Source: an uncultured Pseudomonadota bacterium (GTDB lineage Bacteria > Myxococcota_A > UBA796 > GCA-2862545). Taken from it: a DNA stretch of 64,000 nt. The position numbers were made by a program, and so were the translations under genes. Location: assembly GCA_913061235.1 (NCBI GenBank), contig CAJXTB010000025.1, positions 1 through 64,000 on the forward strand, given 5' to 3'. Positions 3,183 through 35,899 of this stretch are shown one piece after another; within the stretch, counting starts at the first letter, position 1; every line of letters begins with the position of its first letter. Below the pieces are notes generated by a model. That model was not told where the DNA came from and did no database searches. It worked only from the letters and a program-made list of their open reading frames with translations.

Positions 3183-4670
3183 ATGCTGGTGTTGGCCTTG
3201 ATTCCGCTGGTTGTCGACCCCTGGTCGCTGATCCGGGTTGAGGACCCCAACTATCCCGGAGCAGAGACACACTCGGCGACTGGCTCTGTCCTGCTCGAGC
3301 CGCCTCCGCCCGGCATTGCGTGGACTGAAGAAGACGTGCCAGTGACCGATTCCTTCGTCGCTGAAGGGGCCCTGGCTGCACTGGCAGTACATCCTTGGCA
3401 TGACGGCGGCTTCACCGGTGCCGGAGTGAAGGTTGCCGTGTTCGACCTTCAGTGGTTCTCGTCCCTAGACTTGACCGAGGAACTTGGCGAGTTCACCAGT
3501 CACGACTGTTTTGCTGACGCAACCTGCGAACAACCCATCGATTTTCTGCGCCCGCGGTTCCGCTTTGAGCAAGGCGTTCACGGTATCGCTTGCGCTGAGA
3601 TCGTCCGCGACATCGCTCCAGACGTTGAACTGCACTTGGTTCGTACCCAAGGCCGCACCACGCTTGAAAATGCGATTGACTGGGCCGTACGTGAAGAGAT
3701 GGACATCATCAGCATGTCGCTGTCCTTCCTCAACAGTTCGTTTCACGATGGCCGTGGGCCTGTCTCCGAGCTCGCGGCGAAAGCGGCGGCTGGCGGAGTG
3801 CTGTTGGTCACGAGCAGCGGAAACTACGCCGATTCCCATTGGGGCGGCCCATGGATTGACGGCGACAACGACGGACGACTGGACTTTGACGGTGACAATC
3901 AGCTGGACGTGCGCTTGGGGGCTGGCCCGCAGAGCACTCTCGTTCAGTGGGACCAGCGACTGAGCTGTGGTGAGACCGACCTAGACCTTCGCTTAGTCGA
4001 TGATGAAGGCCGTATTCTCGGCGTGTCGGAAGTACGTCAGCTCCCAGGCGCCGATCGGTGTCAACCGTACGAACGTGTGCCGTCCAACGTGCAAGAAGCG
4101 CAGTGGGGACACCTCGAAGTGTGGCTGCACCGCGGTGCCACTGTGGATCTGGATGTGGACTTGCTCTCGACCAGCGGTCGTCTGCGTCCGGCGATGGCGG
4201 AAGGATCCATCGCCGATCCCGCCGCCTCGCCCTTGGCCTTCGCAGTGGGGGCTGTTCGCGCCGAAGGGTACTTCTCGAATGATGTCGAAGCGTTCAGTTC
4301 GTGGGGTTCGCGCACAATTGGCTACCCGAAACCGGACATCGTCGGACCGAATGGTGTGTCCACGGCGGCGTATGGCGCGCGGGGTTTCTACGGGACCAGC
4401 GCCTCCACGCCAGCCGTTGCAGCGGCCATTGCGCTGATCATGAGTGAAGACCCCACACTAAGTTCTTGGCAGGCCGCACGTCTCCTACAGCAGTCAGCAT
4501 TCGGTGGACAACCGGTTTTTAGCGAGCCGAGTCCGGCATTTGGAGCGGGAAAAGCGCGACTCCCATCCCTTGGGGCAACCCGGACCGGTTGCGTTCGAGG
4601 AGACCGCAGTGGGCTGTTCTTCGGGCTGCCATTGTTGTGGCTCGCGCGAAGGCGGCACCGTTCGGGGTAA
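3183..4670 (+). CDS. S8 family subtilisin-like serine peptidase with a MYXO-CTERM-type C-terminal sorting tail
   Basis: Catalytic-triad motifs in subtilase order: VAVFDLQ (Asp), GVHGIACAEI (His), GTSASTPAVAAAIAL (Ser). C-terminus is TGCVRGD...LPLLWLARRRHR. Confidence 0.8.
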   Translation: MLVLALIPLVVDPWSLIRVEDPNYPGAETHSATGSVLLEPPPPGIAWTEEDVPVTDSFVAEGALAALAVHPWHDGGFTGAGVKVAVFDLQWFSSLDLTEELGEFTSHDCFADATCEQPIDFLRPRFRFEQGVHGIACAEIVRDIAPDVELHLVRTQGRTTLENAIDWAVREEMDIISMSLSFLNSSFHDGRGPVSELAAKAAAGGVLLVTSSGNYADSHWGGPWIDGDNDGRLDFDGDNQLDVRLGAGPQSTLVQWDQRLSCGETDLDLRLVDDEGRILGVSEVRQLPGADRCQPYERVPSNVQEAQWGHLEVWLHRGATVDLDVDLLSTSGRLRPAMAEGSIADPAASPLAFAVGAVRAEGYFSNDVEAFSSWGSRTIGYPKPDIVGPNGVSTAAYGARGFYGTSASTPAVAAAIALIMSEDPTLSSWQAARLLQQSAFGGQPVFSEPSPAFGAGKARLPSLGATRTGCVRGDRSGLFFGLPLLWLARRRHRSG

Positions 4671-4683
4671 GGTGCGCGGCCTG

Positions 4684-6903
4684 ATGTCTGGAGTCCGTGT
4701 GCGTCTATCGCTCGCCCCGCTTGTGTTGCTTGCCTTTGCCTGCGAACCCGAAACCGAGGGGATTGATCCCATCGGTGTGTGGACTGCTCCTGAAGCGGCC
4801 ACCAGCATGTCCGTGCTGCCTGCGTCTGGAACTGCTCCAGTGCGTGTGGCCATACGCGGCCAAGGCAGCTGGGGTGCGGCAGTTCCCGGTGATTTGTCAG
4901 GTGTGACCCTCGATGGCGCGCCCGTCGAGATTCAGACAGACGGCGGCGGCGTGGGTGTGTTGACCCTCGACCAAGCCGGTGTGTACACCGTAGCGGCTGA
5001 CAACAGTGTTGTGGTCCCTGTGTTCGCTGGCGCACTGGGCCTTGATGTCAACCCTCGTGCACTCGCACAGGACACCCTGACTAACGTGCATGCTTCAACT
5101 GCCGGCGCCATTGGGGTCTCCGAGTCCAATGTCTGGTGGATTCCAGCTCAAGGCGAGGCGGTGTCGGTTGTAGACGTCGCTGGAGAGCGGATCATCGCAG
5201 GTAGTGCTGCAGGAGCTATCGACGCCGACGGTCTGACGGACGTTGTTGTCTGGAGCGGCGGAACCGTCGCTGTGTTGCGCAGCCATCCCATCGCGGGTCA
5301 CGTGCTCGCTGGAACCATCGAAGCCGAAGGCCGAAGCGTCGCTTCCGCTGCGATCGGTGACGTAGACGGTGACGGCCTCTCAGACATTGTGATTGCCTGG
5401 TCCGAGGCGCCCCGATTCGAGCTGGAAGTGTGGGGCGGAGACGGTGCTTTCAACTTCACCGTAGATGACACTCTGCGTCTGCGGAACGCGCCAAACTCGG
5501 TGTCTATCGGGGACAACACAGGTGAGGGACGGCCGCAGATCACCGTCCTAGACGACACCAACTTCTGGGTACGTTTCGTCCGTAGCGGCGACACCTACGC
5601 TCAGACTGGACCCACCCTCGTTGATACCTCCTTCCCGGACGCATCCACGTCGCTGTCGGGTGACGTAAACGGCGATGGCGCAGACGAATTGTTTGTGATC
5701 GGTCCGCTCGCACCTACCGTGCAACGGGACGTTCGCATGTTCGACTTGTCGGATGCGGTGTCGGTCACCAGCTTTGAGAGCGGCAGTATTGGCGCCTCCG
5801 TGGCTGTCGCAGACTCAGACCGTGATGGCCGTCAAGATGTCTGGCTGGCCCAAGAAACGGGCGAGGTCTTTGTCAGACGCATTCCTGTCGAAGCACAGGA
5901 ACAGCGAAGCGTCTGGATGGCACCCGATCCCGGTCCCATCGCGGTTGGGGACTTCAGCGGTGACGGGATTCCCGAGCTGTTTGTGGCCGGTCCGACCACT
6001 TGGGACACCATGTGGGGAGGCACCGCGACCTTCGACACGGGTGTGTGGTGGGCGCCTGCGGATGACGAGACGGTCTTCGAGACCACCTTCACTGTTCCTC
6101 CAGTCTTCATTCGCCCTGACGTTGGCTCTGGCCGGCTCGACATCGTCGGCATGACCGAGTCGGGTGCCAACGTGGACCTTGCTGTTGTGGCGTTGTCCCC
6201 TGGGCCGTCACCCATCCTCAGCGAGCTTGGGACCACCCGCGTATCGATCAGCAACGCTGATGGTGTTGCGATCGCCTATTGTGGCGGGATCGCCTACGCT
6301 CTGACCACCGCTGAGGTCGTCATGGTCGACCTCACGACCGCACCGGCGACTCTACTAGGAACGGCTGACGTCACCGGTGGAACCGTTGTGGCCTGCGGCG
6401 AAGGCCCTTCGTCCTCCACGGTCGGTGTGTTGACAGCCGGCGTTGTCAGTTTGTTTGACGACGGCGGAAATGCACAAGGAACCGAGACCATTGCCGGTGC
6501 TGTGGACATTGGTCTGGCTGGCGGTAGCGTGGAGTCCTGCACGACTGTTGGATGTAGCATTGCGGTGTTGCCCGACGGCCGGGTCGTGACATCGACCGCA
6601 GACGGCGTGTCGGTCGACGATGCGACCTACACAGGCTCGGGCCTGTTGTCGGTTGTGGACATCGATGGAGATGGCACGCAAGAAGTGCTCGCGTTTGCGG
6701 ACGGTGACTTGACCGTCTTCGACGACGCTGCGGCCTCCCTCGTGCCTCGGTACCGTGCCTACAGTGACCTCCGCGTGGACGGTGGTTTGGCTACTGTTGA
6801 TCTCTTTGCAGATGGCAGACGAACGCTTGTTGGCAGTCGTGACGGAAATATTATCGTTTCTACCGGAAATATCCCGGCTGTTGAATCGGACGACGATGAG
6901 TGA
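4684..6903 (+). CDS. FG-GAP/VCBS-repeat (integrin-alpha-like beta-propeller) lipoprotein
   Basis: Lipoprotein signal MSGVRVRLSLAPLVLLAFAC. Multiple Ca-binding-like DxDGDG blades (DVDGDGLSDIVIAW, GDVNGDGADELFVIG, DSDRDGRQDVWLA, GDFSGDGIPELFVAG, VVDIDGDGTQEVLAF). Starts 14 nt after the protease stop. The longer ORF 4504..6903 overlapping the protease was rejected. Confidence 0.7.
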   Translation: MSGVRVRLSLAPLVLLAFACEPETEGIDPIGVWTAPEAATSMSVLPASGTAPVRVAIRGQGSWGAAVPGDLSGVTLDGAPVEIQTDGGGVGVLTLDQAGVYTVAADNSVVVPVFAGALGLDVNPRALAQDTLTNVHASTAGAIGVSESNVWWIPAQGEAVSVVDVAGERIIAGSAAGAIDADGLTDVVVWSGGTVAVLRSHPIAGHVLAGTIEAEGRSVASAAIGDVDGDGLSDIVIAWSEAPRFELEVWGGDGAFNFTVDDTLRLRNAPNSVSIGDNTGEGRPQITVLDDTNFWVRFVRSGDTYAQTGPTLVDTSFPDASTSLSGDVNGDGADELFVIGPLAPTVQRDVRMFDLSDAVSVTSFESGSIGASVAVADSDRDGRQDVWLAQETGEVFVRRIPVEAQEQRSVWMAPDPGPIAVGDFSGDGIPELFVAGPTTWDTMWGGTATFDTGVWWAPADDETVFETTFTVPPVFIRPDVGSGRLDIVGMTESGANVDLAVVALSPGPSPILSELGTTRVSISNADGVAIAYCGGIAYALTTAEVVMVDLTTAPATLLGTADVTGGTVVACGEGPSSSTVGVLTAGVVSLFDDGGNAQGTETIAGAVDIGLAGGSVESCTTVGCSIAVLPDGRVVTSTADGVSVDDATYTGSGLLSVVDIDGDGTQEVLAFADGDLTVFDDAAASLVPRYRAYSDLRVDGGLATVDLFADGRRTLVGSRDGNIIVSTGNIPAVESDDDE

Positions 6904-6982
6904 GTCAATTCCTGGCTCCCTCACCCCCTGTCCGAAACCTTGTGGGTCCGTTAGCAGGCCCGACATTGTCGACACTCTGTTG

Positions 6983-7012
6983 TTGACGCAAGACGCTCGA
7001 GACGCCTATATG
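6983..7012 (+). promoter_or_regulatory. candidate sigma70-type promoter for the 7042 lipoprotein gene
   Basis: TTGACG (6983-6988), 18-nt spacer, TATATG (7007-7012), about 30 nt upstream of the ATG. Confidence 0.3.
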
Positions 7013-7041
7013 GGCTGCTCGACTGCGTCTGGATTGGAGCG

Positions 7042-8205
7042 ATGATGACTCGTATTTCGCTAGTAATTGCCCTTGGCCTCTCTGCCTGCGCCCCGAACAA
7101 CGCGACCGTCGAAGACGGGCAGTTCATGGCCTACTTGGCGGCGAACACCTCGCAGAGCCTGTTTGAAGACAAGCTCAACTTCGACGATGCTGAAGTGTCC
7201 TTCAACATCGACTGCCGCGAACTGGATGACGAATCGGATCGCCTCGAAGCTCCGATCGACAACTGCGAAAACAACTTCGAAGAAGCTTGGTTGGATTCCG
7301 ATGGGTACGTCGCTATTGGCGGACCGCTCGATCCATGGCGCGGCGAAGGTATCATCACCTCCGAAGGCGACATTCAGATCGGCTTCCATCAGCGTCTGCC
7401 CGGTGGCGAAGACTTCCGCTTTGCGTTTGTCATCGATCCCAACTTCCAGCCTCAGCGTTGCTCGGAAGATGGCAATGGCAACACTGTCTCCGAAGACATT
7501 GATGGCAATTGGATTGAGAACTGGTCTGCAGATGTCGACGGCGGCATGATGTACTACCTCACGAACGGCGGATTCCAGTTCAATCCCGCGAGCACCCAGG
7601 AAATCTGGACCTTGCCGCAGGAGTGGCGTTCGGGCGGTGCATGGGGTCGGTTTGCGGCTGAAGATCTCCAGGTTCGTGCCGGATACTACGGCAGCCCTGG
7701 TGCCTACAATGACATCGCTGCAGATGAAGATGCGGCTGTCAGCCCGAACGACCTGTTCTGGTCGGACATGGACGAAGGCGCCGATCCAACATCGGACCGT
7801 GGTCACCAGAGCTTGATTTCAGACGTGCAAGACATCTCGGACGAAGTCAACGACGAGCTAGCCGCCATCAGCGCGCCTATCTTGACCCGCGTTCACACCA
7901 ACGAATGGCGTACTCCTGACCAGTCCGCTGCTGGCCTCGATAGCTGGGTTGAACTTCACTACTCGTATGTCCACTTTGACGCTGGCTCGTCCTTCGAGAA
8001 GGGTGATGCTCTCTCCGGTGAATTCCAGCTGGTGTTTGACGCCTCCGAGTCCCAGACCCGCGTCATGGTGTCTGGCCGGTTCAACGTCGACAAGCTCAAG
8101 CGTGACCGCTGGGTCACGGATGATGTCCAGGCTGCCAAACAAACTGAGAACGGAACGGTTCTCTGTGGTGACAGCGATGACTCGGGCGACGAACCCGCTG
8201 AATAG
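7042..8205 (+). CDS. acidic secreted lipoprotein, hypothetical
   Basis: Signal and lipobox MMTRISLVIALGLSACAP. 387 aa, very Asp/Glu-rich. No recognisable enzymatic motif. Confidence 0.55.
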   Translation: MMTRISLVIALGLSACAPNNATVEDGQFMAYLAANTSQSLFEDKLNFDDAEVSFNIDCRELDDESDRLEAPIDNCENNFEEAWLDSDGYVAIGGPLDPWRGEGIITSEGDIQIGFHQRLPGGEDFRFAFVIDPNFQPQRCSEDGNGNTVSEDIDGNWIENWSADVDGGMMYYLTNGGFQFNPASTQEIWTLPQEWRSGGAWGRFAAEDLQVRAGYYGSPGAYNDIAADEDAAVSPNDLFWSDMDEGADPTSDRGHQSLISDVQDISDEVNDELAAISAPILTRVHTNEWRTPDQSAAGLDSWVELHYSYVHFDAGSSFEKGDALSGEFQLVFDASESQTRVMVSGRFNVDKLKRDRWVTDDVQAAKQTENGTVLCGDSDDSGDEPAE

Positions 8206-8257: not shown

Positions 8258-8632
8258 GTGAAGGGTCGCTGTCGTTCAGACAGCGACCCTTTCTTGTTGG
8301 AGTTCTCGGTGATCATCTTTAACTTTGTGGCTATTGCCCAGATAATGCTGGCCTTTCTGCCGGCCCTCGCCGTTGCGGGCCTTGCCCATCTGGTCGGCGG
8401 CGACTTCGACTTCTGGCTGTTTCTGTGCATTGCCGCCTTGGTCATGCCCATCGACGGCATCTGGCGTCTGGCTGGCATTGCTGGCAGCGAGGGAGAAGAC
8501 GGTGAAGTCATTGTTGGCGGGGGCATGCTGAACATTGTGACGCCCAGTGGCGGTGGTCACTTGTTCTTCATCCCCAACTGGATTGTCGGCGGGCTCGTCG
8601 GAGTCGGTATCTGTACCGGCTTTTTGAGCTAG
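8258..8632 (+). CDS. small Gly-rich membrane protein, hypothetical (start may be 8345)
   Basis: Two or three hydrophobic segments (IMLAFLPALAVAGLAHLVGG, FWLFLCIAALVMPIDGIW, IPNWIVGGLVGVGICTGFL). No obvious RBS. Confidence 0.3.
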   Translation: MKGRCRSDSDPFLLEFSVIIFNFVAIAQIMLAFLPALAVAGLAHLVGGDFDFWLFLCIAALVMPIDGIWRLAGIAGSEGEDGEVIVGGGMLNIVTPSGGGHLFFIPNWIVGGLVGVGICTGFLS

Positions 8633-9402
8633 GCCTCGCCCTTGCGCTCAATACACAGAATCCACTTGCTGCTCTTCGCCGTGACGTCGCGGCCGTCGAA
8701 CCCTCCGGCCTCATGGGCAATGCGAAAGCCGCCCCAGTCGAGCAGCGCCAGCATCTCCTGGTAGTGGAACACGCGAAGGTCGAGCTTTACTTCCTCCGGG
8801 GTTTCTCCCTCGGGAATGTACGTGTACTCGACATGGTGGATCTGGGCGATGGGGTCGTACCAGGACTGTTCCCAGCTGTGGATGTTCTGGCCGGTGACCG
8901 GATGCGCGAAGTCGGTGTGTCCGTATTTTTGGCTCGGATCGCGGCCGTGCAGAATGGGATCTGGAAGGTAGCAGTCCAGGTAGAAGCGCCCGTCGGGTAG
9001 CAGTACGCTGTCGACTGAGGCGAGCAAGGCCAGCACATCACTGTGGTGGGTACAGTGGTGGATGGCATTGAAAGGCAAGAAGACGGTCCGGTAGGAACGC
9101 GGTCCCTTCAAGTGGCGAAAGTCGCCCTGACGCGTACGTATACGCGCTTGCACATGCACCGGTTCGGCGTCGACTTTTCGTTGGAGGTCGCGCAGCATGT
9201 CCTGCGAGCGGTCGATGCCGTGGACTTCAATGTTCGCGCGAGCGAGGGGAAGCGCAATCCTGCCGTTGCCGACGCCGAGCTCCAACACCGGTCCGCCGCG
9301 AGCTTTTGCGAGAGCGACATAGTGCTCAATGTCTGCGGCCAGGGCCGAATACTCAAGGTCGTAGAGCATTGGGTGCCGGTAGGCGAGATCTGACGCGTCC
9401 AT
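8629..9402 (-). CDS. class I SAM-dependent methyltransferase
   Basis: Motif I VLELGVGNGRIALPLA, then LLPDGRFYLD (post-I/II region). 257 aa. Divergent from the HAL-like pair with a 58-bp gap. Confidence 0.8.
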   Translation of the reverse strand: MDASDLAYRHPMLYDLEYSALAADIEHYVALAKARGGPVLELGVGNGRIALPLARANIEVHGIDRSQDMLRDLQRKVDAEPVHVQARIRTRQGDFRHLKGPRSYRTVFLPFNAIHHCTHHSDVLALLASVDSVLLPDGRFYLDCYLPDPILHGRDPSQKYGHTDFAHPVTGQNIHSWEQSWYDPIAQIHHVEYTYIPEGETPEEVKLDLRVFHYQEMLALLDWGGFRIAHEAGGFDGRDVTAKSSKWILCIERKGEA

Positions 9403-9460: not shown

Positions 9461-11071
9461 ATGATGGACCAACCGCACAACCCGCAACTGCCCCTCACCG
9501 GTGGGCGGCTCACACTTGACGACGTCGCCGCTGTCGCTCGAAACGGTGCCCGCGTTCACCTGGCGCATGACGCCCGTCTGCGAATGGCTGCTACCCGCGC
9601 CTGGGTTGCTTCGGTCGCACGAGGGGAGTTGCTCGGAGAGGACGGCGAGCCCATGCCGGTCTACGGCGTCAACACTGGCTACGGCTCGCTGGCACGGGTC
9701 CGCCTGCCTTTAGACGCGATTCGTGAGCTGTCGTTGAACCTCGTGCGCTCGCATGCCGCGGGAATGGGTGAACCGGTCGAGCCTGAAGTCGTGCGCGCCA
9801 TGATGGTTCTGCGCGCCAACGCTCTGGCCAAAGGCGCCTCTGGATGTCGTCCTGCACTCGTTGACACGCTGTGTGAGATGCTCGCGAAGGATGTCGTCCC
9901 AGTTGTGCCGTCTCGCGGTTCTTGCGGTTCCTCCGGCGACCTCGCTCCGCTGTCCCACTTGGGCTTGGTTCTGTTCCGCGGTGAAGAAGAAGATGAAGCA
10001 TCCAGCGGCATGGCGTGGCACAAGGGCGTGATGATGTCTGGCCTCAAGGCCATGGCGGCTGCTGGCATTCCGCGCTTGATTCCGTTGCCGAAAGAAGGTC
10101 TGGCCATCTGTAATGGCGCTCAGCTGACTACGGCGTACGCCAGTTTAGCCGTACATGATGCCTCGCGACTTGCCTTAGACGCAGACATTGCCGCCTCTAT
10201 GAGCTTTGAAGCGCTGCGCGGTACGCTACGAGCTTTTCATCCAGATGTTCACGTTCTTCGGCCGTACCCGGGAGCAATGGCCAGTGCAGCGGCAGTCCGA
10301 GGGGTCACCGCGGGGTCGTCGCTGGCGGATTCGCTGCCTGAAAAGGTCCAAGATGCCTACTCATTGCGCTGTGTTCCGCAGGTTCACGGGTCCGTTCGGG
10401 ATGGCTTGCGGTTCGTACGTAGCCAGGTCGAGATTGAGCTGAACTCGGCAACGGACAATCCCATCTTCCTGCTCAATGACCCGTCCGCGAACAAGGCATT
10501 CTCTGCCGGATTGTTCCATGGCGAGCCGATTGGGCTTGCCGCAGACCACCTGCGCTTGGTGTTGTGCGAGCTGGCTGCTATCAGTGAGCGACGCATTTAC
10601 CGCCTTGCTACCGGCACGCTGTCTGCACGCTTGCCGCCGCTATTGGTTCAGAAGGACCGGCCTGGCCTCGGCCTGCTCGCACCGCAGGCGACCGCTGCGG
10701 CCTTGGTCGCTGAGTGCCGGAGCCTGGGCTGGCCGGCTGGATCTGACTCCATTCCCACCTGTGAAGACCAAGAAGACATGGTGGCTATGTCGACGACCGC
10801 TGCGCGTCGGGCTTGGCAGGTGATGCAGTCTGCACGGCGTGTCATCGCGATTGAGATGATGAGTGCTGCGAAGGCGCTGCGCTGGCGTCTTGAGAATGAG
10901 CCTGGCACGGTGCTCGGCATTGGTACTGCTGCCGCCTACCACTGCATTGTGGCTGGACAGACGGACGACATGACGCCGTCCAAACGAATTGAAGTCGTCG
11001 AGGCCATTCTGGCGTCTGGAGACGTCCTACAGGCCGTTGTTACTGCCGGCGTACCGCTGGAGGTGGCATGA
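9461..11071 (+). CDS. histidine/phenylalanine/tyrosine ammonia-lyase family enzyme (MIO family), with Ser-Ser-Gly at the MIO position
   Basis: Full-length HAL/PAL signatures: YGVNTGYG Tyr loop, GSCGSSGDLAPLSH (aligns to GSVGASGDLAPLAH), YSLRCVPQVHG, EIELNSATDNPIF, CEDQEDMVAMS. AAGGA RBS. Confidence 0.85.
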   Translation: MMDQPHNPQLPLTGGRLTLDDVAAVARNGARVHLAHDARLRMAATRAWVASVARGELLGEDGEPMPVYGVNTGYGSLARVRLPLDAIRELSLNLVRSHAAGMGEPVEPEVVRAMMVLRANALAKGASGCRPALVDTLCEMLAKDVVPVVPSRGSCGSSGDLAPLSHLGLVLFRGEEEDEASSGMAWHKGVMMSGLKAMAAAGIPRLIPLPKEGLAICNGAQLTTAYASLAVHDASRLALDADIAASMSFEALRGTLRAFHPDVHVLRPYPGAMASAAAVRGVTAGSSLADSLPEKVQDAYSLRCVPQVHGSVRDGLRFVRSQVEIELNSATDNPIFLLNDPSANKAFSAGLFHGEPIGLAADHLRLVLCELAAISERRIYRLATGTLSARLPPLLVQKDRPGLGLLAPQATAAALVAECRSLGWPAGSDSIPTCEDQEDMVAMSTTAARRAWQVMQSARRVIAIEMMSAAKALRWRLENEPGTVLGIGTAAAYHCIVAGQTDDMTPSKRIEVVEAILASGDVLQAVVTAGVPLEVA

Positions 11072-12525
11072 CAACCCAAATTGATGGTGAGACCCTCACG
11101 ACTGCTGGTATTCATGCCATTGCAGGTGGTGCCGGGGCCTCGCTGAGTGCTTCGGCCCGCGCGCGAATGGAAGCGACCTCTCCCTTCGCGGAGCCCGTCC
11201 TACGTCAGAAGTGGGAGTGGTTGGTCGGTGGGGACGCCCCAGAAGACGACGCTGAGCTCATGACGTCGTTTGTCCACGGTCACTGTGCCGGCGTTGGAGC
11301 CCCGCTTCCTGCCCCTTTGGTTCGTGCGACGCTTGCTGCGCGTGCGAACGTTCTTGCGAAGGGCTTCTCAGGTGTCCGTCCGATGGTCGTAGACGGCGTG
11401 CTGCGGCTGCTGCAAGACAATGTGATTCCGAAAGTCCCACGCCAAGGGTCTGTTGGCACTGCTGGGTGTCCAGCCCTGTCGCATATGGCGTCAGTGGTCC
11501 TGGGATTCGGTGGAGAGGCGTGGGTCTCGGGTGAACTGCAGTGCGTTGGCACATCCTATTTGGAGCATGCACCGACCCAAAAGGAGGTGTTGTCCCTCAT
11601 CAACGGGTCCACGCTGACCACCGCTCTCGCCGCCATCGCGGTTGAGCGCAGTCGTCGCATCCTAGATGTCGCCATGAAGGCGGCAGCGATGTCCTTCGAG
11701 GTCGTCCGTGCCGACACCAGCTGCCTAGACGCCGACGTCTTGGCCCTGCGTGGACAGCCGGGCGGTGTCGTCGTCGCTGAACGGCTGCTTGCGGAGCTCT
11801 CCGGCAGCGGCATTGTGGGGGCTTGGCGTACGCCGGATGCCTTCTGTATTCGCTGTACGCCAGCGGTTCTGGGTGCCGCATACGACGCTGTTGAGGCCAC
11901 AGCAGCGATTATCAATCGCGAGCTCAACGGCGCCTGCGACAACCCCTTGGTACTGCCTGATGGGCGGGTCATTGAGGCCGGTAACTTCCACGCAGCGCCT
12001 ATTGCGCTCGCGCTCGACCACCTGAAGATTGCCATGGCGCAGGTCGCCGGGATCTCAGAGCGTCGAACCTTCCGTATGACGCATGGTCAACTCTCCGGAC
12101 TTCCCAGCTATCTGGCGGAATCCACGGGGTTGAACAGCGGTCTGATGCTCGCCCAGTACACGGCAGCGTCTCGAACTTCGGAGACCAAGGGCTTGGCGCA
12201 TCCGGCCTCGGTCGACACCATTCCCACGATTCAGCACCGCGAAGACCACGTCTCCATGGGGCCCGGCGCGGCGTACATGGCACTCGAGCTACTCGAAGCC
12301 ACCGCGGATGTTGTGGGCATTGAGCTTCTGTGCGGCGCACAGGGGGCGGACCTACACTTTGCTGCGGGCGAAGGTCCACTTGGTAAGGGTACGGCTGCGT
12401 CCCATGCCGCAGTTCGCGAGGTTGTACGCACCTGGGACCGTGACCGCGTGCTGCATCCGGACCTCGCTGCCATGTCTGCGCTGGTTCGCGGTACACGTCT
12501 GGTGGCAGACGGCCCAGCTTGGTGA
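11068..12525 (+). CDS. divergent HAL/PAL-family paralog lacking the MIO Ser and the Tyr loop (probable pseudo-enzyme or altered function)
   Basis: Retains NGACDNPLV, GNFHAAPIA, ISERR and QHREDHVSMG. Has GSVGTAGCPALSHM (Thr-Ala-Gly, one residue shorter) instead of ASG, and no YGxNTGFG loop. Start overlaps the upstream stop (ATGA). Confidence 0.75.
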   Translation: MTTQIDGETLTTAGIHAIAGGAGASLSASARARMEATSPFAEPVLRQKWEWLVGGDAPEDDAELMTSFVHGHCAGVGAPLPAPLVRATLAARANVLAKGFSGVRPMVVDGVLRLLQDNVIPKVPRQGSVGTAGCPALSHMASVVLGFGGEAWVSGELQCVGTSYLEHAPTQKEVLSLINGSTLTTALAAIAVERSRRILDVAMKAAAMSFEVVRADTSCLDADVLALRGQPGGVVVAERLLAELSGSGIVGAWRTPDAFCIRCTPAVLGAAYDAVEATAAIINRELNGACDNPLVLPDGRVIEAGNFHAAPIALALDHLKIAMAQVAGISERRTFRMTHGQLSGLPSYLAESTGLNSGLMLAQYTAASRTSETKGLAHPASVDTIPTIQHREDHVSMGPGAAYMALELLEATADVVGIELLCGAQGADLHFAAGEGPLGKGTAASHAAVREVVRTWDRDRVLHPDLAAMSALVRGTRLVADGPAW

Positions 12526-12547: not shown

Positions 12548-13969
12548 CTAGCCCCCGTGATGAACCGCAGGTAGCCGCGTGTCCAAGTCCCATTCGGGGT
12601 CCCATGCCTGCGTGTGACACGACGTACAGATCGCCTCCAGCACACACACAGGGCAGCTCTCGCCGAGTCCCTCAATGTTGTCGCTTCCGCCACCTGCGGC
12701 AACATGGCGCTCACCGGGACCGTGGCAGCTCTCGCAGCCAACGGACTCGTCGGTCTTGAAGCCAGCGAGCTCGCTCGGCGGTGGGCCGGAGCGTGTTGGA
12801 GAGGCGTGGCAGCTGACACAGGCCACGTTGTTGGCGGCGTCTGGGTGTTCGGCGACCACTTCAGGCTTGGACAGGGTGGCCATGGCTTGGCCGTGGGGAG
12901 AGTCTTTCCACCATGCGTGCTCGGACTCGTGGCAGCTCTGGCATTGGTCCGAGCCGACGAAGGCGCCGTCTTCAAAGGCCAAGAGCGTGCGCGGTGCGGT
13001 GCCCTCGTACAGTGCGGTCCGGGCTTCGCGGTAGGTGGCGTCGTCCATGGCCGATGCCCGGTAGTGGTCAATGAGGGGCAGGCCCTTTTCGTAGGTGAAG
13101 GCGATTGAGTGGTCGGCGTCGTGGCAGCTCTCGCAGGTGCTCTGGGGCTCCACTCTCTGGCCGTCGTGTGGGCCGCCCGCGCTGTGACAGGACTCGCAGC
13201 CTACGTTGACCAGGTCGCTCGTCGCAGACCCGTCCCAACCTGTTGGGAGGCCCGCTCCGGTGACGTGGCAGCTCGTACACTTGTCGTTGGTGGTCTCTTC
13301 GTGCTTGACCAGGGTGTTCCACGCGAGGGAGTGGTGAGACAAGCCATAGGAGGCGGCTTCTTCGGTGTGGCAGGTCGCGCAGACGTTGGTGCCCTGGAAC
13401 TCGCCTTCACGGAACGCAGCGAACGGGTCGCCAGCGATACGGCCCTCGACAAAGGCGTCGTAGCCAGGGGAGTAGGGGTAGAAAGCATCCACTACTTCGA
13501 AGCCGTCGTCTACACGCTGGACCAGCAGGGCCGACGGCGTGCTGCGAATGCCCAGGATGGTCCCGATGTCGCGCATGGTGTCTGGGATGATGTCGTAGGG
13601 GACGTTGTACTCTTGGGCGTACACGTTGATCTGCCCCTGAGTCGCGCGTCCACCGGCAATACCGACGACGTCAGCGGTGCGGCCCAGTCGCTCCGACAGT
13701 GCATTGAGCTCGGGCTGAACGTGTTGGCAGTGAGGGCAGGTGGGCGAGAAGTAGACGAGCAGCGTTGGTTTGCGCTTGATCTGGCTGGCCAGCGCATCTG
13801 GGAACTGCAACACCATGCTCTCGGTCTGGCCCGCGATGACGGTTCCGGCGTTGGCTGCGGGGGTACCGCGGTGCCAGCCACGGGAATCGAGGTCCGTCGC
13901 TAAGACCACGCCAATCAGCACCAGAGCGGACACAGTGAACAACAGCAAGAAGCGGCGGGAAGACGTCAT
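12548..13969 (-). CDS. membrane-anchored thioredoxin-fold (CPHC) / octaheme cytochrome c fusion protein
   Basis: N-terminal TM segment (FLLLFTVSALVLIGVVLA). Trx-like region with YFSPTCPHCQH. Eight CxxCH motifs: CATCH, CTSCH, CESCH x3, CQSCH, CVSCH, CTSCH. The longer start at 14017 was rejected in favour of MTSSRR at 13969. Confidence 0.75.
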   Translation of the reverse strand: MTSSRRFLLLFTVSALVLIGVVLATDLDSRGWHRGTPAANAGTVIAGQTESMVLQFPDALASQIKRKPTLLVYFSPTCPHCQHVQPELNALSERLGRTADVVGIAGGRATQGQINVYAQEYNVPYDIIPDTMRDIGTILGIRSTPSALLVQRVDDGFEVVDAFYPYSPGYDAFVEGRIAGDPFAAFREGEFQGTNVCATCHTEEAASYGLSHHSLAWNTLVKHEETTNDKCTSCHVTGAGLPTGWDGSATSDLVNVGCESCHSAGGPHDGQRVEPQSTCESCHDADHSIAFTYEKGLPLIDHYRASAMDDATYREARTALYEGTAPRTLLAFEDGAFVGSDQCQSCHESEHAWWKDSPHGQAMATLSKPEVVAEHPDAANNVACVSCHASPTRSGPPPSELAGFKTDESVGCESCHGPGERHVAAGGGSDNIEGLGESCPVCVLEAICTSCHTQAWDPEWDLDTRLPAVHHGG

Positions 13970-14038
13970 GGGCTCTCGGTGGGCAGGCAGGGGCGACAAC
14001 ACGCGGTGGGACCACATTGTTGCACAGAAGACTGGACT

Positions 14039-16756
14039 CTACGGGGCGCTTCGCAGACGTGCCGCTTCGCGGGCCTCGCGCTCCGCTTCTCGTGCGTCTC
14101 GTTCGGCTTCCTTGCGCGCCTGTTCTGCATCTCGCGCAGCCTGGAGCTCTTCGATGTACACCGCGCGAAGCTCTTCGAGGTGCCGCCGGTCCCAACTGCG
14201 AGAGGGGTCTGCCACGAGTACCTGCTCGTAGGAACGCACTGCAGCGCGTTGGTTACCTGCGTCTGCGAGGCGTTCGGCTTCGGTCACCCACACATCAGCA
14301 AGGGCTTCCCCTATGCGGATGAGGTCGCGATTTCGTGGCGACCAGGCACGGGCTTGCTGCAGTAAGGCAGTGGCTTGTTCGGGCTCGGCCGTCTCTGCCT
14401 GTGAGGCGTAGCAGCTGGCCAATCCATCCCGAATCCTGTCGTCTTGGTCTTGTCGGTAGGGATGGTCGTTTGCAAGGTGGCGTCGGCCGTCGCTCCACAA
14501 CATCTCCGCCGGCTCACAGCGCATTGCCGTCAGCAGCTCGTCTACGCGAACGAGCGCACCGTCGTATCCGGCAACCATTGTGGCCTCGTCGGTGACGGTG
14601 ATGTCGCGTACCCATCGGGCCTCACCCTCCAACACCCTGGGGGTGTGGGTGACGGGAGTGGCACCAACGGGGCTTGCTGGCCAGACACCCTGGGCCTCAT
14701 CGACGCCGAACACGTACAGGCCAATGTCGTAGCGGCCTTCGGGCAAGTCCGTTGGAATGTCGATCCGGTGACGGCCGACCATCTCCTCGGTCTTGCGCCA
14801 GCGGGAGAAGGGGATGTAGTCGTAGGCCGGTGGGACTTCTACAACGTGTGTGGTCTCGTCATTGGCCAGGAACAAGAAGGCACGGAAACCGTCCGAACGA
14901 GTGGTCCGTCGCCAGCTCAACTCCACGAACAGCTCGCCGCCAGGCATCACGGACTTCACCGGAATGTCGAATCGGTTGAGCATCACAGCGCGTCCAAAAC
15001 GAACCAGGCTGTTGCTGCGGTCTGCACGCTCGACGAAGTGGTCGCGGTGAACGTGGTTGCCCTCGTGAACGCTGTACACGGACACGGGGAAGGCGGGGAC
15101 TTCTACGTAGTTGTCCCACCCATCATGGTGACGCATCTTGGTGCGGCTTGCCCAACTTGCGTGGACATGCGCGAAGGTTGGATTGCGTGCGTCGTACACG
15201 TACTCGTCGATGAAGTCGAGCTGCCAGTGGTTGTGGCCCATAGGTACGTCTACTAGGCCGGCCATGTCGACAATCTGCGGGCCGAACCACCACAAGTGAG
15301 CGCCCATGTCGACGTCCATGATGGTGGCGTTGTCGATGTTGAGGCGGTCTTGAACACCCTGCATGTACTGGACGCGTCGGTGGACATCGTACGGTGTGGT
15401 GACGGGCATGGAGACCAGCAGCACGGCGTGGACGGCGTCAGGAATGAGCAGGCCGGCGAGCAGGAGACCCGTCGCCCAGGTTCGTGCGCGTGGGCTGTTG
15501 AGCACCTCGACAACGGCATGAACACCACTGGCCAGGACAACGGAGATTGGGACGATGGCCATGGACACCCAGCGCCAGCCGCGCATCCAGTCGCCACCCG
15601 AGTACAGGGCAAAGAACAGAACGGTGCAGCCCATCAGCCAGGCGAGAACCCGGGGGGCGTCCTTTTCGCGGTCGATGGCTACGGCCGGAACCAGCAAGAC
15701 CATGGCGGCCAACCAGACGACGCGCCCACGTACCAACAGGTCCGGCTCATCCCAGCGCTTGCCCCAGTCATCTCCACCGAGCTCGAGGGCCTTCATCAGC
15801 TCACTCGGCCAAGAGATGCCCAGCGCAATCAGGATGACGGTGACAAGAGCGAGTCCCAAGCCCACGCGGCCGCGCCAGGAGCGAACGCCGGTGATGCCGA
15901 GCAAGAACAACGGGGCGACAAAGCCGCGACCGTGTCCCAAGAACCATCCGCGCAGGTAGTCCCAGCCGCGTTTGTCCCATTCCATAGGCTGGAAGCGGGC
16001 TTGTTCACCTAGCTTTGCGTAGTAGGTATTCGGGAATTCCCAGGCGAAGTACGCGTAGCGCCACCCGTGCCACAGCAGCAGTGGAATGAGCAGGAAGACG
16101 CCCCAGGACACGGCCCAGGTCATGGCTTTTCGCCAGCCCATTCGGAACGCGAAGGCCCAGCCGGTCAGTCCAGCCACTGCCACGTACATGGGGGCTTCGG
16201 GACGGGTCATGGCGAGTGCAGCGAACCATAGGGCGGACCAAGGCTTGCCGCCTTCCGTGACTTCGCGCAGCATGGCTACACAGCCTGCGGCCAGGAAGAA
16301 GCTGAAGAAGGCGTTCTCAAGACCGGAGGCACACCAGTTGGCGTGCTGAGGGGACATGGCCAGTAGCAATGGAACGAGCGCTGACCACCGTCCGAGCGGA
16401 AGCATGCGCTTTCCCCACTGTCCGCCAACAACGATGGTTGCTGCGCCGAAGAGGGCTCCCAAGAGCTTGCTCGCGACCCATGGACCCACGCCGACAACGC
16501 GCAATGCAGCCAGGGCGAGGGTCCATGTAGGATTCGAGAAGCCTTCGACGCGCTCGCCACCAATGTAGGTAACGAAGCCGTCGCCAAGGGCGAAGTTGCG
16601 CGCGTAGGCGAAGGTAATGGCGGCGTCTTCGACGAACCAAGCCGAGTACCAGGCGTAGTGGAACAAGAACAGCGCCACACAGAGCATGGTTGCGTGGTGG
16701 TGGATGCGTCCAGCCGCAGTCAGGCCATCCCACCAGTTCACAACACGCGTCTTCAC
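14039..16756 (-). CDS. GT-C fold membrane glycosyltransferase (ArnT/PMT/TMTC-like) with a large His-rich periplasmic C-terminal domain and a TPR-like/coiled tail
   Basis: 905 aa. About 12 predicted TM helices. First-loop acidic motif FVEDAAITFAYARNFALGDG resembles the ArnT/PMT DE...Y..AR motif. C-terminal domain VDVPMGHNHW..HVHASW..HVHRDHF. Tail is EAERDAREAEREAREAARL. Confidence 0.6.
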   Translation of the reverse strand: MKTRVVNWWDGLTAAGRIHHHATMLCVALFLFHYAWYSAWFVEDAAITFAYARNFALGDGFVTYIGGERVEGFSNPTWTLALAALRVVGVGPWVASKLLGALFGAATIVVGGQWGKRMLPLGRWSALVPLLLAMSPQHANWCASGLENAFFSFFLAAGCVAMLREVTEGGKPWSALWFAALAMTRPEAPMYVAVAGLTGWAFAFRMGWRKAMTWAVSWGVFLLIPLLLWHGWRYAYFAWEFPNTYYAKLGEQARFQPMEWDKRGWDYLRGWFLGHGRGFVAPLFLLGITGVRSWRGRVGLGLALVTVILIALGISWPSELMKALELGGDDWGKRWDEPDLLVRGRVVWLAAMVLLVPAVAIDREKDAPRVLAWLMGCTVLFFALYSGGDWMRGWRWVSMAIVPISVVLASGVHAVVEVLNSPRARTWATGLLLAGLLIPDAVHAVLLVSMPVTTPYDVHRRVQYMQGVQDRLNIDNATIMDVDMGAHLWWFGPQIVDMAGLVDVPMGHNHWQLDFIDEYVYDARNPTFAHVHASWASRTKMRHHDGWDNYVEVPAFPVSVYSVHEGNHVHRDHFVERADRSNSLVRFGRAVMLNRFDIPVKSVMPGGELFVELSWRRTTRSDGFRAFLFLANDETTHVVEVPPAYDYIPFSRWRKTEEMVGRHRIDIPTDLPEGRYDIGLYVFGVDEAQGVWPASPVGATPVTHTPRVLEGEARWVRDITVTDEATMVAGYDGALVRVDELLTAMRCEPAEMLWSDGRRHLANDHPYRQDQDDRIRDGLASCYASQAETAEPEQATALLQQARAWSPRNRDLIRIGEALADVWVTEAERLADAGNQRAAVRSYEQVLVADPSRSWDRRHLEELRAVYIEELQAARDAEQARKEAERDAREAEREAREAARLRSAP

Positions 16757-19461
16757 AGGCGTTCTCCATCCGTGCGCGGTGTGCGCAGTCGGCGCTGTAA
16801 GGGGTCTAGAGGGTCATCGTCGAGGTGCAGTCGCTCTCGCCTGGCGACTTCAGCGGCTCGCCGGGCGTGGCTTCGTGTGGGGTCGATGCGTAGGGCTTGA
16901 GAGAGCTGGGCGTATGCCAGGTCGTAGTCGCCTAATGACATTGCAGCGTAGCCCGCCTGTTCGAGCTGTTGTGCGACCGGTGTGGAGACGTCGTGCAGTC
17001 CAGGAACATTGATGTCCCACCAGCGTGCCTTCTCCAACATGGGCCAGGCTGTCCACTGCGGCAGACGTCGCTCAGCGTTGCCGAGCCAACACTCTGCCAG
17101 TGTGCGTGCGGCGACCTGACGGTTTGCACTGACCCATCGCGGGTCGTGCGCGCGGTAGGCTCGTGCCGCGTACCAGAGGTCTTCCGCCATGTCGCAGTCG
17201 CCCATCGATGCGGTGTCGGAGAGCATGCTCATGTGGTCGAGGGCCAGCGTCAGGATGTCTGCGGCCGGCCGAATCCAGATGACTCTTGGCCAGCGAATCT
17301 CGCCCTCAATGACGCGTGGGGAGTCGCTCTGAGCGCCTGACGACCAGCTCTGTACGGGCAGCACACCTGTGCGGTCGGTGACGAAGAAGCCAAGGTCGGG
17401 TTGGCCGCGCTCGACGTCGTCGGGGATGGGCACGGCGACTCGGCTGACAACAATGTCGCCTGGCGACCACCGCGAGGGCTCGTACCAGTCGTACCCTGGT
17501 GCGACGTCGAAGAGGACTTGTGTGCCGTCTTGCCAGACCAAGAAGCCAGTCACTCGAAAGTCGTCAGTGGCCGTCTCGATGCCCGACGCGCTTAGGGCGA
17601 CCTCTAGGAAGAGGCTACCTCCGATCTCACCTGTCTCCACCGGCGTACGCCATCCAATGATCTGGACTTCACTCGGAGCGCGAATGGTATCGGCATCGAG
17701 CGGTACTTCAGGGTCTACCGGCAATGCGAAGGTGGCTCCGCGACCGGTCTCCCAGGTGTCCGTCACCAGATGGCGCTTGGCAACGTGGTTGCCGGGATGT
17801 GAGCTCGAGCGACCGGCTGGGTAGGGCGGTAGCTCCAGGTACTGCTCTTCCCACTCTGGGTGTTGGCGAATCTTGAGCTTGCTCGCCCAGCCGCCGTGCA
17901 CGTGGGCAAAGTCGGGACGTCGCTCACTGAACAGGTACTCCTCTACGAAGTCGTGCTCGTAGTGGTTGTGGGCGATGGGGACGTCTACTAGGCCCGCAAT
18001 GTCCGACAGCTCATGGCCGGACCACCACATGATGCCGCCCATGTCCACGTCCAGCGTGACCACGTGGTCCATGTGTAGGCGTTCTTGCACACCCGCCATG
18101 TAGGACACCCGCTTCTTGATGCTGTACGGGCTGGTCTCTGGCCTTTGGGCGAACGTGTAGGTCCCGCGAATCCCAGAGGTGAGCGCCAGCAATGCCACCG
18201 CAGACATGGTGGTCACATACAGTGCGTCCCGCGCCCAACCGCGGAAGAAGCTGGCCAAGAACGTACCCAACTCAACGGTACCCACGGCGGTGAGGATGGC
18301 GATTGGAACGCTGATGAGCGACATCCAACGCCATGCTTTCATCCAGTCGCCGTCGGCATACATCGCAAAGAACAGTCCGAAACCGAGCAGGTGTAGACAC
18401 ACGCCGGTGACTGGATGGCTGAGCCCACGGCGCCCGACGATGGGCATGATGACCAGCGAGCTGACGAGCACCACCGCGAGGGCCGTCGTCCACGTACGCA
18501 TGTGCTCGCCTTCTTCACCGGTGCCACCCATCAGGTAGATGACGGCCAAGATGAACACGACCTGGGCGGTCACCAGCGGCGCCAAGAACCGGTTGCCGCG
18601 AAGCGTTGAGACGGCAGCCCACCACAGCGGAATGAGCCCGAGCTGCCACTGGCGCATGGACCAGCTGTAGACGTACGTCCATGACTTCTTGTCGAACTGC
18701 AACAGCTTGGTGTTCGCAACGCCCGATTTTGCGTAGTAGGTATTCGGAAGAGGCCAGGCGAAATACCACTGTCGCCAGATCTGATGCGCGCCAAAGGGAA
18801 CCCAGAAGGTGACCAGCCACGCCATCCATCGGCGGCCAAGCCACAAGGTCCATAGTCCAACCACCGCGGCGTAGGCGATACCCTCGGGCCGTGTCAGCGC
18901 AACGCCGGCCAGCGCGAGTGCACTCCACGGCCAGCGACCGTCTTCTTCCCGCACCATGCACCACAGACCGACTGCCAACAACGCGCTGAACAACGCGTTC
19001 TCCAGCCCGCTCGCTCCCCAGATGGCGAACTGCGGGTTTGCAGCCAGCACCAGCCCAGCAAGGACCGGTGCGACCGGGCCGTCTGGACGAATTCGACGGA
19101 CCAGGTCCACGACTACGGCCACTGTCAGCGCCGCTAGAACTGCGGCGAACACCTTGCTGCTGGTGAAGCTGGAGATGCCGACGACTTCAGGAATGGCCAG
19201 TAAGAAGGTCCACAGTGGGTTGCTGTATCCTTCGACCCGCTCCCCACCAGGGTAGGCCACGAGCCCGTATCCACCGGCGAGATTCCGAGCGAAGGTGAAG
19301 CTGATAGCGGCGTCTTCGATGTACCAGCGAACGAGCATGAGCTGGTGTACGACGGCACCGATGACGCTCACTACGCCCGCCACGAACACAGTCTGGTCCG
19401 TGCTGCGCAGTCCTTGCCACCATTGCCGGAGCCGTATCGTCACCCGTTTGCGTCCTCTCAC
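16753..19461 (-). CDS. GT-C fold membrane glycosyltransferase, paralog of the downstream gene
   Basis: 902 aa with the same architecture. WYIEDAAISFTFARNLAGGYG loop motif. C-terminal domain co-linear with the paralog (VDVPIAHNHYEHDFVEEY, HVHGGWASKLK). Stop overlaps the next start (translational coupling). Confidence 0.6.
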   Translation of the reverse strand: MRGRKRVTIRLRQWWQGLRSTDQTVFVAGVVSVIGAVVHQLMLVRWYIEDAAISFTFARNLAGGYGLVAYPGGERVEGYSNPLWTFLLAIPEVVGISSFTSSKVFAAVLAALTVAVVVDLVRRIRPDGPVAPVLAGLVLAANPQFAIWGASGLENALFSALLAVGLWCMVREEDGRWPWSALALAGVALTRPEGIAYAAVVGLWTLWLGRRWMAWLVTFWVPFGAHQIWRQWYFAWPLPNTYYAKSGVANTKLLQFDKKSWTYVYSWSMRQWQLGLIPLWWAAVSTLRGNRFLAPLVTAQVVFILAVIYLMGGTGEEGEHMRTWTTALAVVLVSSLVIMPIVGRRGLSHPVTGVCLHLLGFGLFFAMYADGDWMKAWRWMSLISVPIAILTAVGTVELGTFLASFFRGWARDALYVTTMSAVALLALTSGIRGTYTFAQRPETSPYSIKKRVSYMAGVQERLHMDHVVTLDVDMGGIMWWSGHELSDIAGLVDVPIAHNHYEHDFVEEYLFSERRPDFAHVHGGWASKLKIRQHPEWEEQYLELPPYPAGRSSSHPGNHVAKRHLVTDTWETGRGATFALPVDPEVPLDADTIRAPSEVQIIGWRTPVETGEIGGSLFLEVALSASGIETATDDFRVTGFLVWQDGTQVLFDVAPGYDWYEPSRWSPGDIVVSRVAVPIPDDVERGQPDLGFFVTDRTGVLPVQSWSSGAQSDSPRVIEGEIRWPRVIWIRPAADILTLALDHMSMLSDTASMGDCDMAEDLWYAARAYRAHDPRWVSANRQVAARTLAECWLGNAERRLPQWTAWPMLEKARWWDINVPGLHDVSTPVAQQLEQAGYAAMSLGDYDLAYAQLSQALRIDPTRSHARRAAEVARRERLHLDDDPLDPLQRRLRTPRTDGERL

Positions 19462-35680: not shown

Positions 35681-35899
35681 GTTTCCCTCCGTTCGCCTAC
35701 ATCACATGGGTGCCGCGCCGTGGTCGGAAGTGAAGGGGGAGCAGTGCCGTTTTGAGGTTTTTCCTCCGCCACCCGTCCGACCGATGAACCGCAACCCCAT
35801 GCAACAGACGGCGTCCCAACACTCCTTCGGCCGGTGCGAGCAAGGTTCTCCGTCCGCGACTGCTGCACGTGGTATTTTTGCCGCCGGGAGTACAGATTC

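Follow-up and report, generated by a model that had tools for sequence, protein, structure and literature searches.

A co-encoded pair of histidine ammonia-lyase-type paralogs as a candidate two-subunit enzyme of uncultured Myxococcota-like bacteria

Enzymes that carry the 4-methylideneimidazole-5-one (MIO) cofactor, namely the histidine, phenylalanine and tyrosine ammonia-lyases (HAL, PAL and TAL) and the related aminomutases, are textbook homotetramers with applications in therapy (pegvaliase) and biocatalysis. A stretch of 64,000 nucleotides from an uncultured bacterium (contig CAJXTB010000025.1 of assembly GCA_913061235.1, positions 1 to 64,000; referred to as the window) encodes two paralogs of this family in overlapping reading frames. 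Gene 1 looks like a complete lyase, and gene 2 has neither the serine from which MIO is formed nor the loop that carries the catalytic tyrosine. Why should a bacterium keep, directly behind a lyase gene, a paralog that seems unable to carry out the reaction? Our answer, to which we give a probability of about 0.55, is that the two products, termed alpha and beta, assemble into one MIO-dependent ammonia-lyase of the HAL clade, a heteromer that is most likely alpha2beta2. The sequence evidence for such a putative two-subunit variant of HAL is strong and coherent.

Sequence features of the two paralogs

A preliminary description of this locus, made from the nucleotide sequence, had regarded gene 1 as a full-length HAL/PAL/TAL-type enzyme with Ser-Ser-Gly behind a cysteine at the place of the MIO triad. 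When compared with Pfam, gene 1 matched PF00221 with an E-value of 4e-156 over profile positions 1-462. Its best NCBIfam model was hutH (TIGR01225), with a score of 491.9 bits that lay below the cutoff of 539.15. Both proteins were aligned to the HAL of Pseudomonas putida (PpHAL), and the PpHAL numbering is used for residue positions. The alignment bore out the description of gene 1: Cys140-Gly-Ser142-Ser143-Gly144 was found together with all the canonical catalytic residues, viz. Tyr53, Ser82-His83, Asn195, Gln277/Tyr280/Arg283, Phe329 and Glu414. A first triad residue other than Ala is tolerated in MIO enzymes, as in the Thr-Ser-Gly of the phenylalanine aminomutase (PAM) of Pantoea, and the Ser-Ser-Gly of alpha is predicted to be able to cyclise to MIO.

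These features are shared by the relatives of gene 1, which we call family A. Cys-Gly-Ser-Ser-Gly was invariant in all 51 members encoded at the loci described below, and 119 of the 120 best database homologs of gene 1, collected in a search from the A side, contained GSCGSSG. The catalytic Tyr was present in 49 of the 51 members, the remaining two being truncated. Near the MIO, the family has the fixed changes Val140Cys, Ala142Ser, Ile194Thr, Thr197Ala and Asn328Leu/Met. Among the residues of HAL selectivity, Ser82-His83 and Glu414 are present and Met382 is variable; in the wall of the pocket, Cys410-Glu411-Asp412 is invariant. One A-type protein of 629 amino acids (aa) (P0195) came from an assembly of 2.35x coverage, and is probably the product of an assembly frameshift. 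In the lineage of the window, position 416 of alpha is Met, Ile or Leu (Met438 in the window, at 10772-10774, within QEDMVAM), where the family has a near-invariant His416.

Gene 2 is 34% identical to gene 1. It gave an E-value of 1.5e-113 against PF00221, with only profile positions 60-466 matched, and hutH was again the best NCBIfam model (408.2 bits, below the same cutoff). The four family motifs that had been read in it (NGACDNPLV, GNFHAAP, ISERR and QHREDHVSMG) are all there, and the coordinates and motifs quoted in the preliminary description were correct to within 2 nt. The two losses claimed for gene 2 were also seen in the alignments. Ala takes the position of the MIO-forming Ser in a Thr-Ala-Gly triad (142-144), after which the protein has one residue fewer than HAL, and the Tyr loop is deleted, leaving a gap of about 20 aa in the BLAST alignment with gene 1. 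Pro277 and Phe280 were found in the alignment to PpHAL, in which the equivalents of His83, Asn195, Arg283, Phe329 and Glu414 are retained.

The relatives of gene 2 make up family B. Ala143 was present in 55 of its 56 members, Phe280 in 56/56 and Pro277 in 43/56. PpHAL residues 55-64 were gapped in more than 80% of the family, position 53 being Val, Leu or Ile. Met382, Gln411, His412, Glu414, Asp415 and His416 are invariant, so that positions 411-412 are altered in both families, differently: Glu-Asp in A and Gln-His in B. Thr-Ala-Gly and the shortened segment behind it (GCPALSH), which the preliminary description had treated as the hallmark of the dead paralog, are true of gene 2 but specific to its lineage; the family consensus is Ala-Ala-Gly, and the shortening occurs in just 8 of the 56 members. 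This shortening and the H416M change of alpha, both of them lineage-specific, are not consistently linked across the family.

The 120 best homologs of gene 2, drawn from 5.8 billion proteins and 50-100% identical to it, all lacked the Tyr-loop motif. The Tyr280 position was Phe in all but one of them (P0078, with Tyr), behind Pro or Ala at 277 (mostly Pro), and the triad Ser was replaced wherever the triad motif was captured, mostly to give Ala-Ala-Gly. Since the losses recur across these homologs, they are not a chance feature of gene 2. The earlier statements that gene 2 should be unable to make MIO and that it lacks the catalytic Tyr were upheld.

Is gene 2 then a decaying duplicate that happens to lie beside a working hutH-like gene? 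The loss of several catalytic elements together would suit such a pseudogene, but the frame is intact and the gene is under purifying selection. When compared with the orthologs in L087, a pair from another metagenome, the ratio of nonsynonymous to synonymous substitution rates (dN/dS) was 0.054 for gene 2 and 0.035 for gene 1 (dS about 1.2; the gene 2 ortholog is 88% identical). In the same comparison similar values were obtained for the neighbouring methyltransferase (0.048) and cytochrome (0.050) genes. An alignment of 24 diverse family B members had a mean column identity of 64% and more than 90 invariant positions, and no fewer than 54 species-level genomes, along with 120 database clusters, share the architecture. 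The AlphaFold2 monomer model of beta was confident, with a mean local score (pLDDT) of 87.2 and a predicted template-modelling score (pTM) of 0.89, and resembled HAL crystal structures with template-modelling (TM) scores of 0.85-0.90. Selection, conservation and fold thus contradict decay, whose probability we consider negligible. In the model, beta residues 384-393, which belong to the wall segment, had low pLDDT; this may hint weakly at a segment that becomes ordered only against a partner.

Conservation of the pair and complementary losses

A scan of GTDB with one genome per species returned 80 loci. L001-L054 and L058 carried family B proteins, and ordinary solitary HALs with Gly-Ala-Ser-Gly, the Tyr loop and QDxY were found in the range L055-L080. 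In 50 of the 54 species-level B loci a family A gene lay directly upstream on the same strand, with GSCGSSGDLAPL invariant and with the Tyr loop and QDAY. As for the B loci without an upstream A gene, L040 is at a contig edge, and L035, L042 and L053 are related to one another and have a solitary B gene. The in-frame start of B overlapped the stop of A by 4 nt in 38 of the 50 loci and by 8 nt in eight, often behind GGAG. In the window, the ATGA in which the stop of gene 1 and the start of gene 2 had been said to overlap was seen at 11068-11071, and both open reading frames exist. The pair is therefore conserved and apparently translationally coupled, with A upstream in 50/54 B loci and an overlap of 4 or 8 nt in 46/50. 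Two A proteins on long contigs (P0207 and P0209) also have a second PF00221 gene, with its triad uninspected, immediately downstream at a 4- or 8-nt overlap.

Families A and B were each monophyletic in 100 of 100 neighbour-joining bootstraps. Identity to canonical HALs was 45% for A and 41% for B, as against 38% between A and B, i.e., each is nearer to the HALs than to the other. Across the 50 loci, the pairwise distances of A and those of B were correlated (r = 0.85), and the two genes have therefore been inherited together. A heteromer of an enzyme with a dead paralog is expected to show conserved co-encoding of the active and the inactive copy and purifying selection on each, and the A-B pair shows both. 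The carriers in the 80-locus scan were all metagenome-assembled genomes, mostly labelled Myxococcota or 'Deltaproteobacteria', with no cultured organism among them. A few labels, 'Enterobacterales' among them, seem to be pipeline artefacts.

Residue profiles were prepared for 51 A proteins, 56 B proteins and 26 canonical HALs, and 139 positions were at least 90% conserved in the HALs. Both families kept 72 of these positions. Thirty were lost by B alone, 27 of them before residue 330; they include the Tyr53 loop, residues 75-82, Ser143, residues 190-198, Gln277 and Tyr280. The 21 positions lost by A alone showed the opposite tendency, with 14 after residue 365, mostly in the C-terminal wall (370-418). 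Among them are Phe370, Gly376, Ser379, Met382, Leu383, Ala384, Tyr386, Lys396, Val404, Ser418, 446/447, 469 and 478. At the C-terminal positions lost by A, B keeps the HAL residue at 84-100%. The early losses of B and the late losses of A were separated with p = 4e-5 by Fisher's exact test. The full HAL selectivity set (Ser82-His83, Met382 and Glu414) would be present only if the site is a composite of alpha and beta.

Changes at 383/384 of alpha (Gly/Ala/Thr-Leu/Val/Ile for x-Pro) went together with a change at 410 of beta (Gly for Val/Ile/Met) in 8/8 loci (L007, L008, L015, L018, L024, L025, L032 and L033). This co-variation may reflect shared ancestry rather than contact, and it was not used as evidence of contact.

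A predicted alpha2beta2 enzyme

The MIO active site is built from three monomers: in AvPAL the MIO, Y314 (the equivalent of Tyr280) and Q452 (the equivalent of Glu414) belong to different chains (bioRxiv 10.1101/2021.06.06.447205). In the heteromer that we propose, alpha would form MIO from Ser-Ser-Gly and supply the Tyr loop and Gln277/Tyr280/Arg283. Beta would supply the canonical C-terminal segments, about 370-386 and 404-418, including Met382 and Glu414, that line the site of another subunit. In a tetramer of D2 symmetry, the site of chain A would take Tyr280 from chain B and its wall from chain C. Two alpha and two beta chains could be placed in three ways, and only one of these would make fully canonical sites, namely that with the alphas paired across the 'Tyr280' axis and alpha and beta paired across the 'wall' axis. 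In the resulting tetramer two of the sites would be live and the other two would be dead pockets. Each live site would contain MIO, Tyr53, His83 and Asn195 from one alpha, Gln277/Tyr280/Arg283 from the other alpha, and Met382-Tyr386 and Glu414 from beta. A dead pocket, centred on beta and without MIO or the Tyr, would be completed by Pro277/Phe280 of the second beta and by the altered wall of alpha; such pockets may be structural or ligand-binding. We take alpha2beta2 to be the best explanation because this placement matches what each family has kept and lost. The preliminary description had already suggested a heteromer with a dead paralog, and this part of it is favoured by the co-encoding, the coupling and the complementary losses.

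A further set of proposals is offered together and more tentatively, at somewhat less than even odds. These are that the alpha2beta2 form is obligate, and would be the first two-gene form of HAL/PAL/TAL, having arisen by duplication followed by complementary degeneration, in which alpha retained the MIO domain and the Tyr280 helix and beta no more than the third-subunit wall; that the remodelled pockets (with the invariant His83/Cys84 of beta and Cys410/Glu411/Asp412 of alpha) would be allosteric or metal/ligand sites; and that the pair would occur in uncultured Myxococcota-like lineages only.

The composite live site is nearly that of a canonical HAL, the exceptions being beta 410-413 (Val-Gln-His-His) and the MIO-proximal changes of alpha. 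Because of this near identity, we infer that L-histidine, or an imidazole compound closely related to it, is the probable substrate, which would be converted to a urocanate-type acid. Ser82-His83 of alpha and Glu414 of both proteins are HAL-type and not PAL/TAL-like; since these selectivity residues are HAL-like, a cinnamate product is unlikely.

A number of observations weigh against the heteromer. The segment 370-386 was assigned to the chain of Glu414 partly from the structures of TAL and PAM, whereas the AvPAL preprint backs the placement of the Glu414 and Tyr280 equivalents only. A start/stop overlap can also be shared by enzymes that form no complex. The sequences examined included no A-B fusion protein. 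Neither hutU nor hutI, which would have supported histidine as the substrate, was found near the pair when the window genes scanned against Pfam and the genes called in L081-L091 were inspected. Cys410-Glu411-Asp412 is invariant, so the wall of alpha is not simply drifting, and the 'dead' pocket may itself serve a function. His83, Cys84, Asn195, Arg283, Phe329, Gln411 and His412 of beta are invariant, which also fits a ligand-binding homotetramer of beta. The solitary B genes of L035 (5971-7533), L042 (5371-6900) and L053 (5980-7533) have no A gene within 6 kb; in this lineage, either the A partner is elsewhere in the genome or beta works alone. Lastly, in L086 (5454-11500) A and B are separated by two inserted genes.

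Could one operon then encode two separate homotetramers? Alpha would be an MIO lyase or aminomutase with an altered pocket, and beta a non-MIO protein that serves as a carrier of substrate or product, as a sensor, or as an enzyme with some other chemistry. The invariant pocket of beta, which includes Met382 and Glu414 besides the residues just listed, argues for this, as do the solitary B genes, the split pair of L086 and the conservation of alpha's own wall as Cys-Glu-Asp. On the other hand, the complementary losses (p = 4e-5) would have to be a coincidence, and the overlap of 4 or 8 nt in 46/50 loci, with near-perfect co-occurrence, is more typical of subunits. An alpha4 enzyme would also combine canonical catalytic residues with a wall that is non-canonical and, at 382/383, partly variable. 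We regard separate homotetramers as unlikely, and continue to prefer the alpha2beta2 heteromer.

Of the known systems, HutH (P. putida HAL, PDB 1B8F/1GKM) resembles the pair in that both proteins belong to PF00221 and score best against hutH models, and alpha keeps Tyr53, Ser82-His83, Ser143-Gly144, Asn195, Gln277, Tyr280, Arg283, Phe329 and Glu414. However, all four subunits of HutH come from a single gene, as a rule in the company of hutU and hutI, and have Ala-Ser-Gly, whereas here two paralogs are co-encoded with no hut genes nearby. Alpha departs from HutH in having Cys140, Ser142, Thr194, Leu/Met328 and Cys-Glu-Asp at 410-412; beta does so in lacking MIO, the Tyr loop, Gln277 and Tyr280. 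Both scores are below the hutH cutoff (492 and 408 vs 539 bits).

Mixed tetramers of paralogous MIO subunits are known from plant PAL isoforms, and heterotetramers of these are mentioned in the literature on PAL gene families. Every plant isoform is catalytically complete and able to homotetramerise, whereas here one partner is, by its sequence, predicted to be constitutively dead, and the losses of the two partners are complementary. Heteromers of an active enzyme with a dead homolog also occur, and multi-chain active sites permit complementary defects, as in the intragenic complementation of argininosuccinate lyase/delta-crystallin. The trypanosome PRMT1 ENZ-PRO 'prozyme' is a heteromer of the former kind (bioRxiv 10.1101/776112). 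Prozymes and argininosuccinate lyase differ from our pair in fold, chemistry and organism. We found no description of a paired MIO/MIO-less lyase, or of MIO from Ser-Ser-Gly, in open-access papers and bioRxiv, an absence that is not proof; the preliminary description, too, had not recognised the arrangement as a described one.

If the heteromer is real, a three-chain MIO active site can be split between paralogs, giving a natural half-of-sites design, and the pair would extend the few known enzyme/pseudoenzyme heteromers by a bacterial case. As to annotation, family B accounts for hundreds of entries in databases that are named 'histidine ammonia-lyase' or 'aromatic amino acid lyase', and these proteins are almost certainly unable to catalyse the reaction alone. 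Family A proteins may need their family B partner in heterologous expression.

Gene neighbourhood and the divergent methyltransferase

The coordinates of the pair, its motifs and the adjacent methyltransferase gene are given in Table 1.

Table 1. Features of the lyase pair and the adjacent gene, with positions in the window
Feature	Position	Strand	Remarks
Gene 1, alpha subunit (family A)	9461..11071	+	536 aa; full-length HAL-clade PF00221 protein, predicted to be MIO-competent
Gene 2, beta subunit (family B)	11068..12525	+	485 aa; HAL-clade paralog without MIO or Tyr loop
Alpha inner-loop motif YGVNTGYG	9662..9685	+	aa 68-75; carries the catalytic Tyr (equivalent of PpHAL Tyr53)
Alpha triad segment GSCGSSGDLAPLSH	9917..9958	+	Codons of Ser157-Ser158-Gly159 at 9929-9937
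Alpha QDAYSLRC	10349..10372	+	Equivalents of Gln277/Tyr280/Arg283; invariant in family A
Coupling junction	11059..11071	+	GGAGG at 11059-11063, then ATGA; beta start (11068-11070) over alpha stop (11069-11071)
Beta degenerate triad segment GSVGTAGCPALSHM	11446..11487	+	Thr131-Ala132-Gly133 at 11458-11466; Ala at the position of the MIO-forming Ser
Beta TPDAFCIRC	11830..11856	+	Gln277 to Pro, Tyr280 to Phe; Arg283 retained
Beta IQHREDHVSM	12229..12258	+	'Third-subunit wall' segment with the equivalent of Glu414
Divergent class I S-adenosylmethionine (SAM) methyltransferase	8629..9402	-	Pfam Methyltransf_25/11/12; lineage-specific neighbour, functional link uncertain

The methyltransferase gene begins 58 bp from the start side of gene 1 and is divergent from it, as had been described. 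Its best NCBIfam match was a daptide-type N-methyltransferase (90.5 bits against a cutoff of 175). From this neighbour a functional link had been proposed, with a methylated cinnamate- or urocanate-type acid as the product of the lyase. That part of the proposal, unlike the heteromer itself, gained little: a methyltransferase gene adjoins the pair in 6 of the 54 genome loci, and elsewhere the neighbours vary. Among metagenome relatives of the window's clade, it also adjoins the pair in L082, L085 and L087-L089. In L086 a methyltransferase gene is nearby but not adjacent. The clade of the window has a long synteny, consisting of genes for a Band_7 protein, an S8 peptidase, an FG-GAP protein, a lipoprotein, the methyltransferase, A-B, a multihaem cytochrome, two proteins of about 900 aa and PspA. 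With synteny of this length, adjacency of the methyltransferase within the clade says little about function.

The methyltransferase suggests one more role for beta, that of an MIO-independent trimethylammonia-lyase of the ergothionase or histidine-betaine-lyase type, acting on an N-methylated amino acid made by the neighbouring enzyme. Like beta, these lyases are PF00221 proteins without Ala-Ser-Gly, and they act on betaines (bioRxiv 10.64898/2026.04.22.720169); the SAM methyltransferase next to the pair is N-methyltransferase-like, and the model of beta had a TM score of 0.86 with ergothionase (PDB 6S7J). But the known enzymes, which are active alone, keep the Tyr that abstracts the beta-proton (same preprint), and family B has deleted its loop. 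Lys384 of ergothionase corresponds to Ala384 in B. Beta is 22% identical to ergothionase, against 33-36% to HALs, and the methyltransferase is adjacent in so few loci. Trimethylammonia-lyases have not been described as paired with an MIO paralog, either. With the retained Tyr and Lys384 both missing, we rejected this role for beta as highly improbable.

Upstream of the pair, other loci had an SDR gene (L083), a GNAT gene (L084) or an unrelated gene (L090). A type I polyketide synthase gene follows the pair in about 9-14 loci, and a fatty-acid hydroxylase gene is among the other neighbours. A biosynthetic cluster or methyltransferase-linked pathway was considered and rejected, since the neighbours vary and only the A-B pair is constant. 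A hut operon was rejected as well: the window genes that were scanned against Pfam and the genes called in L081-L091 included no hutU, hutI or hutG. Around the pair, no Rfam family and no promoter-like or terminator-like site rose above background. The wider window is ordinary chromosome, with genes for a glycosyl hydrolase, a kinase, an ABC transporter, dehydrogenases, malate dehydrogenase and phosphoglycerate mutase.

The solitary B genes of L035, L042 and L053 have ExbD/DCC1-like oxidoreductase genes on one side and two Band_7 genes on the other. The two genes inserted in L086 are on the opposite strand, and encode a histidine kinase/response-regulator hybrid and a ferredoxin; genes for a fatty-acid hydroxylase and a methyltransferase are nearby.

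In the window, the S8 peptidase, the FG-GAP repeat protein and a 387-aa lipoprotein (lipobox LSAC, no Pfam match) are encoded as a conserved block upstream of the pair (3183..8205, + strand). About 15 loci have the lipoprotein upstream of the pair, with identity down to about 30%; FG-GAP was found in fewer loci, and the S8 peptidase also in L082. Between the lipoprotein and methyltransferase genes, an open reading frame of 107 aa (8309..8632, + strand) encodes no known domain. Public contigs have it annotated as a gene, and its conservation extends to L087, with 71% identity and a dN/dS of 0.11.

On the other side of the pair, the gene at 12548..14017 (- strand) encodes an N-terminal thioredoxin/AhpC-like domain fused to several CXXCH haem motifs (Cytochrome_C554/C7), with a partial match to NF041198, a model of 'UshA-like (seleno)protein' (140 bits; cutoff, 275). 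The two proteins of about 900 aa that follow (14039..16756 and 16753..19461, both - strand, with a 4-nt overlap) are paralogs of each other without a Pfam match. Homologs of these occur in L006 and L014, and such genes lie beside a thioredoxin-fused multihaem cytochrome of the same kind in L006 and L082. Farther along, at 35834..38341 (+ strand), a protein of 835 aa has nine MopE-type putative copper-binding repeats (PF11617), and similar proteins are encoded near the pair in L012 and L083.

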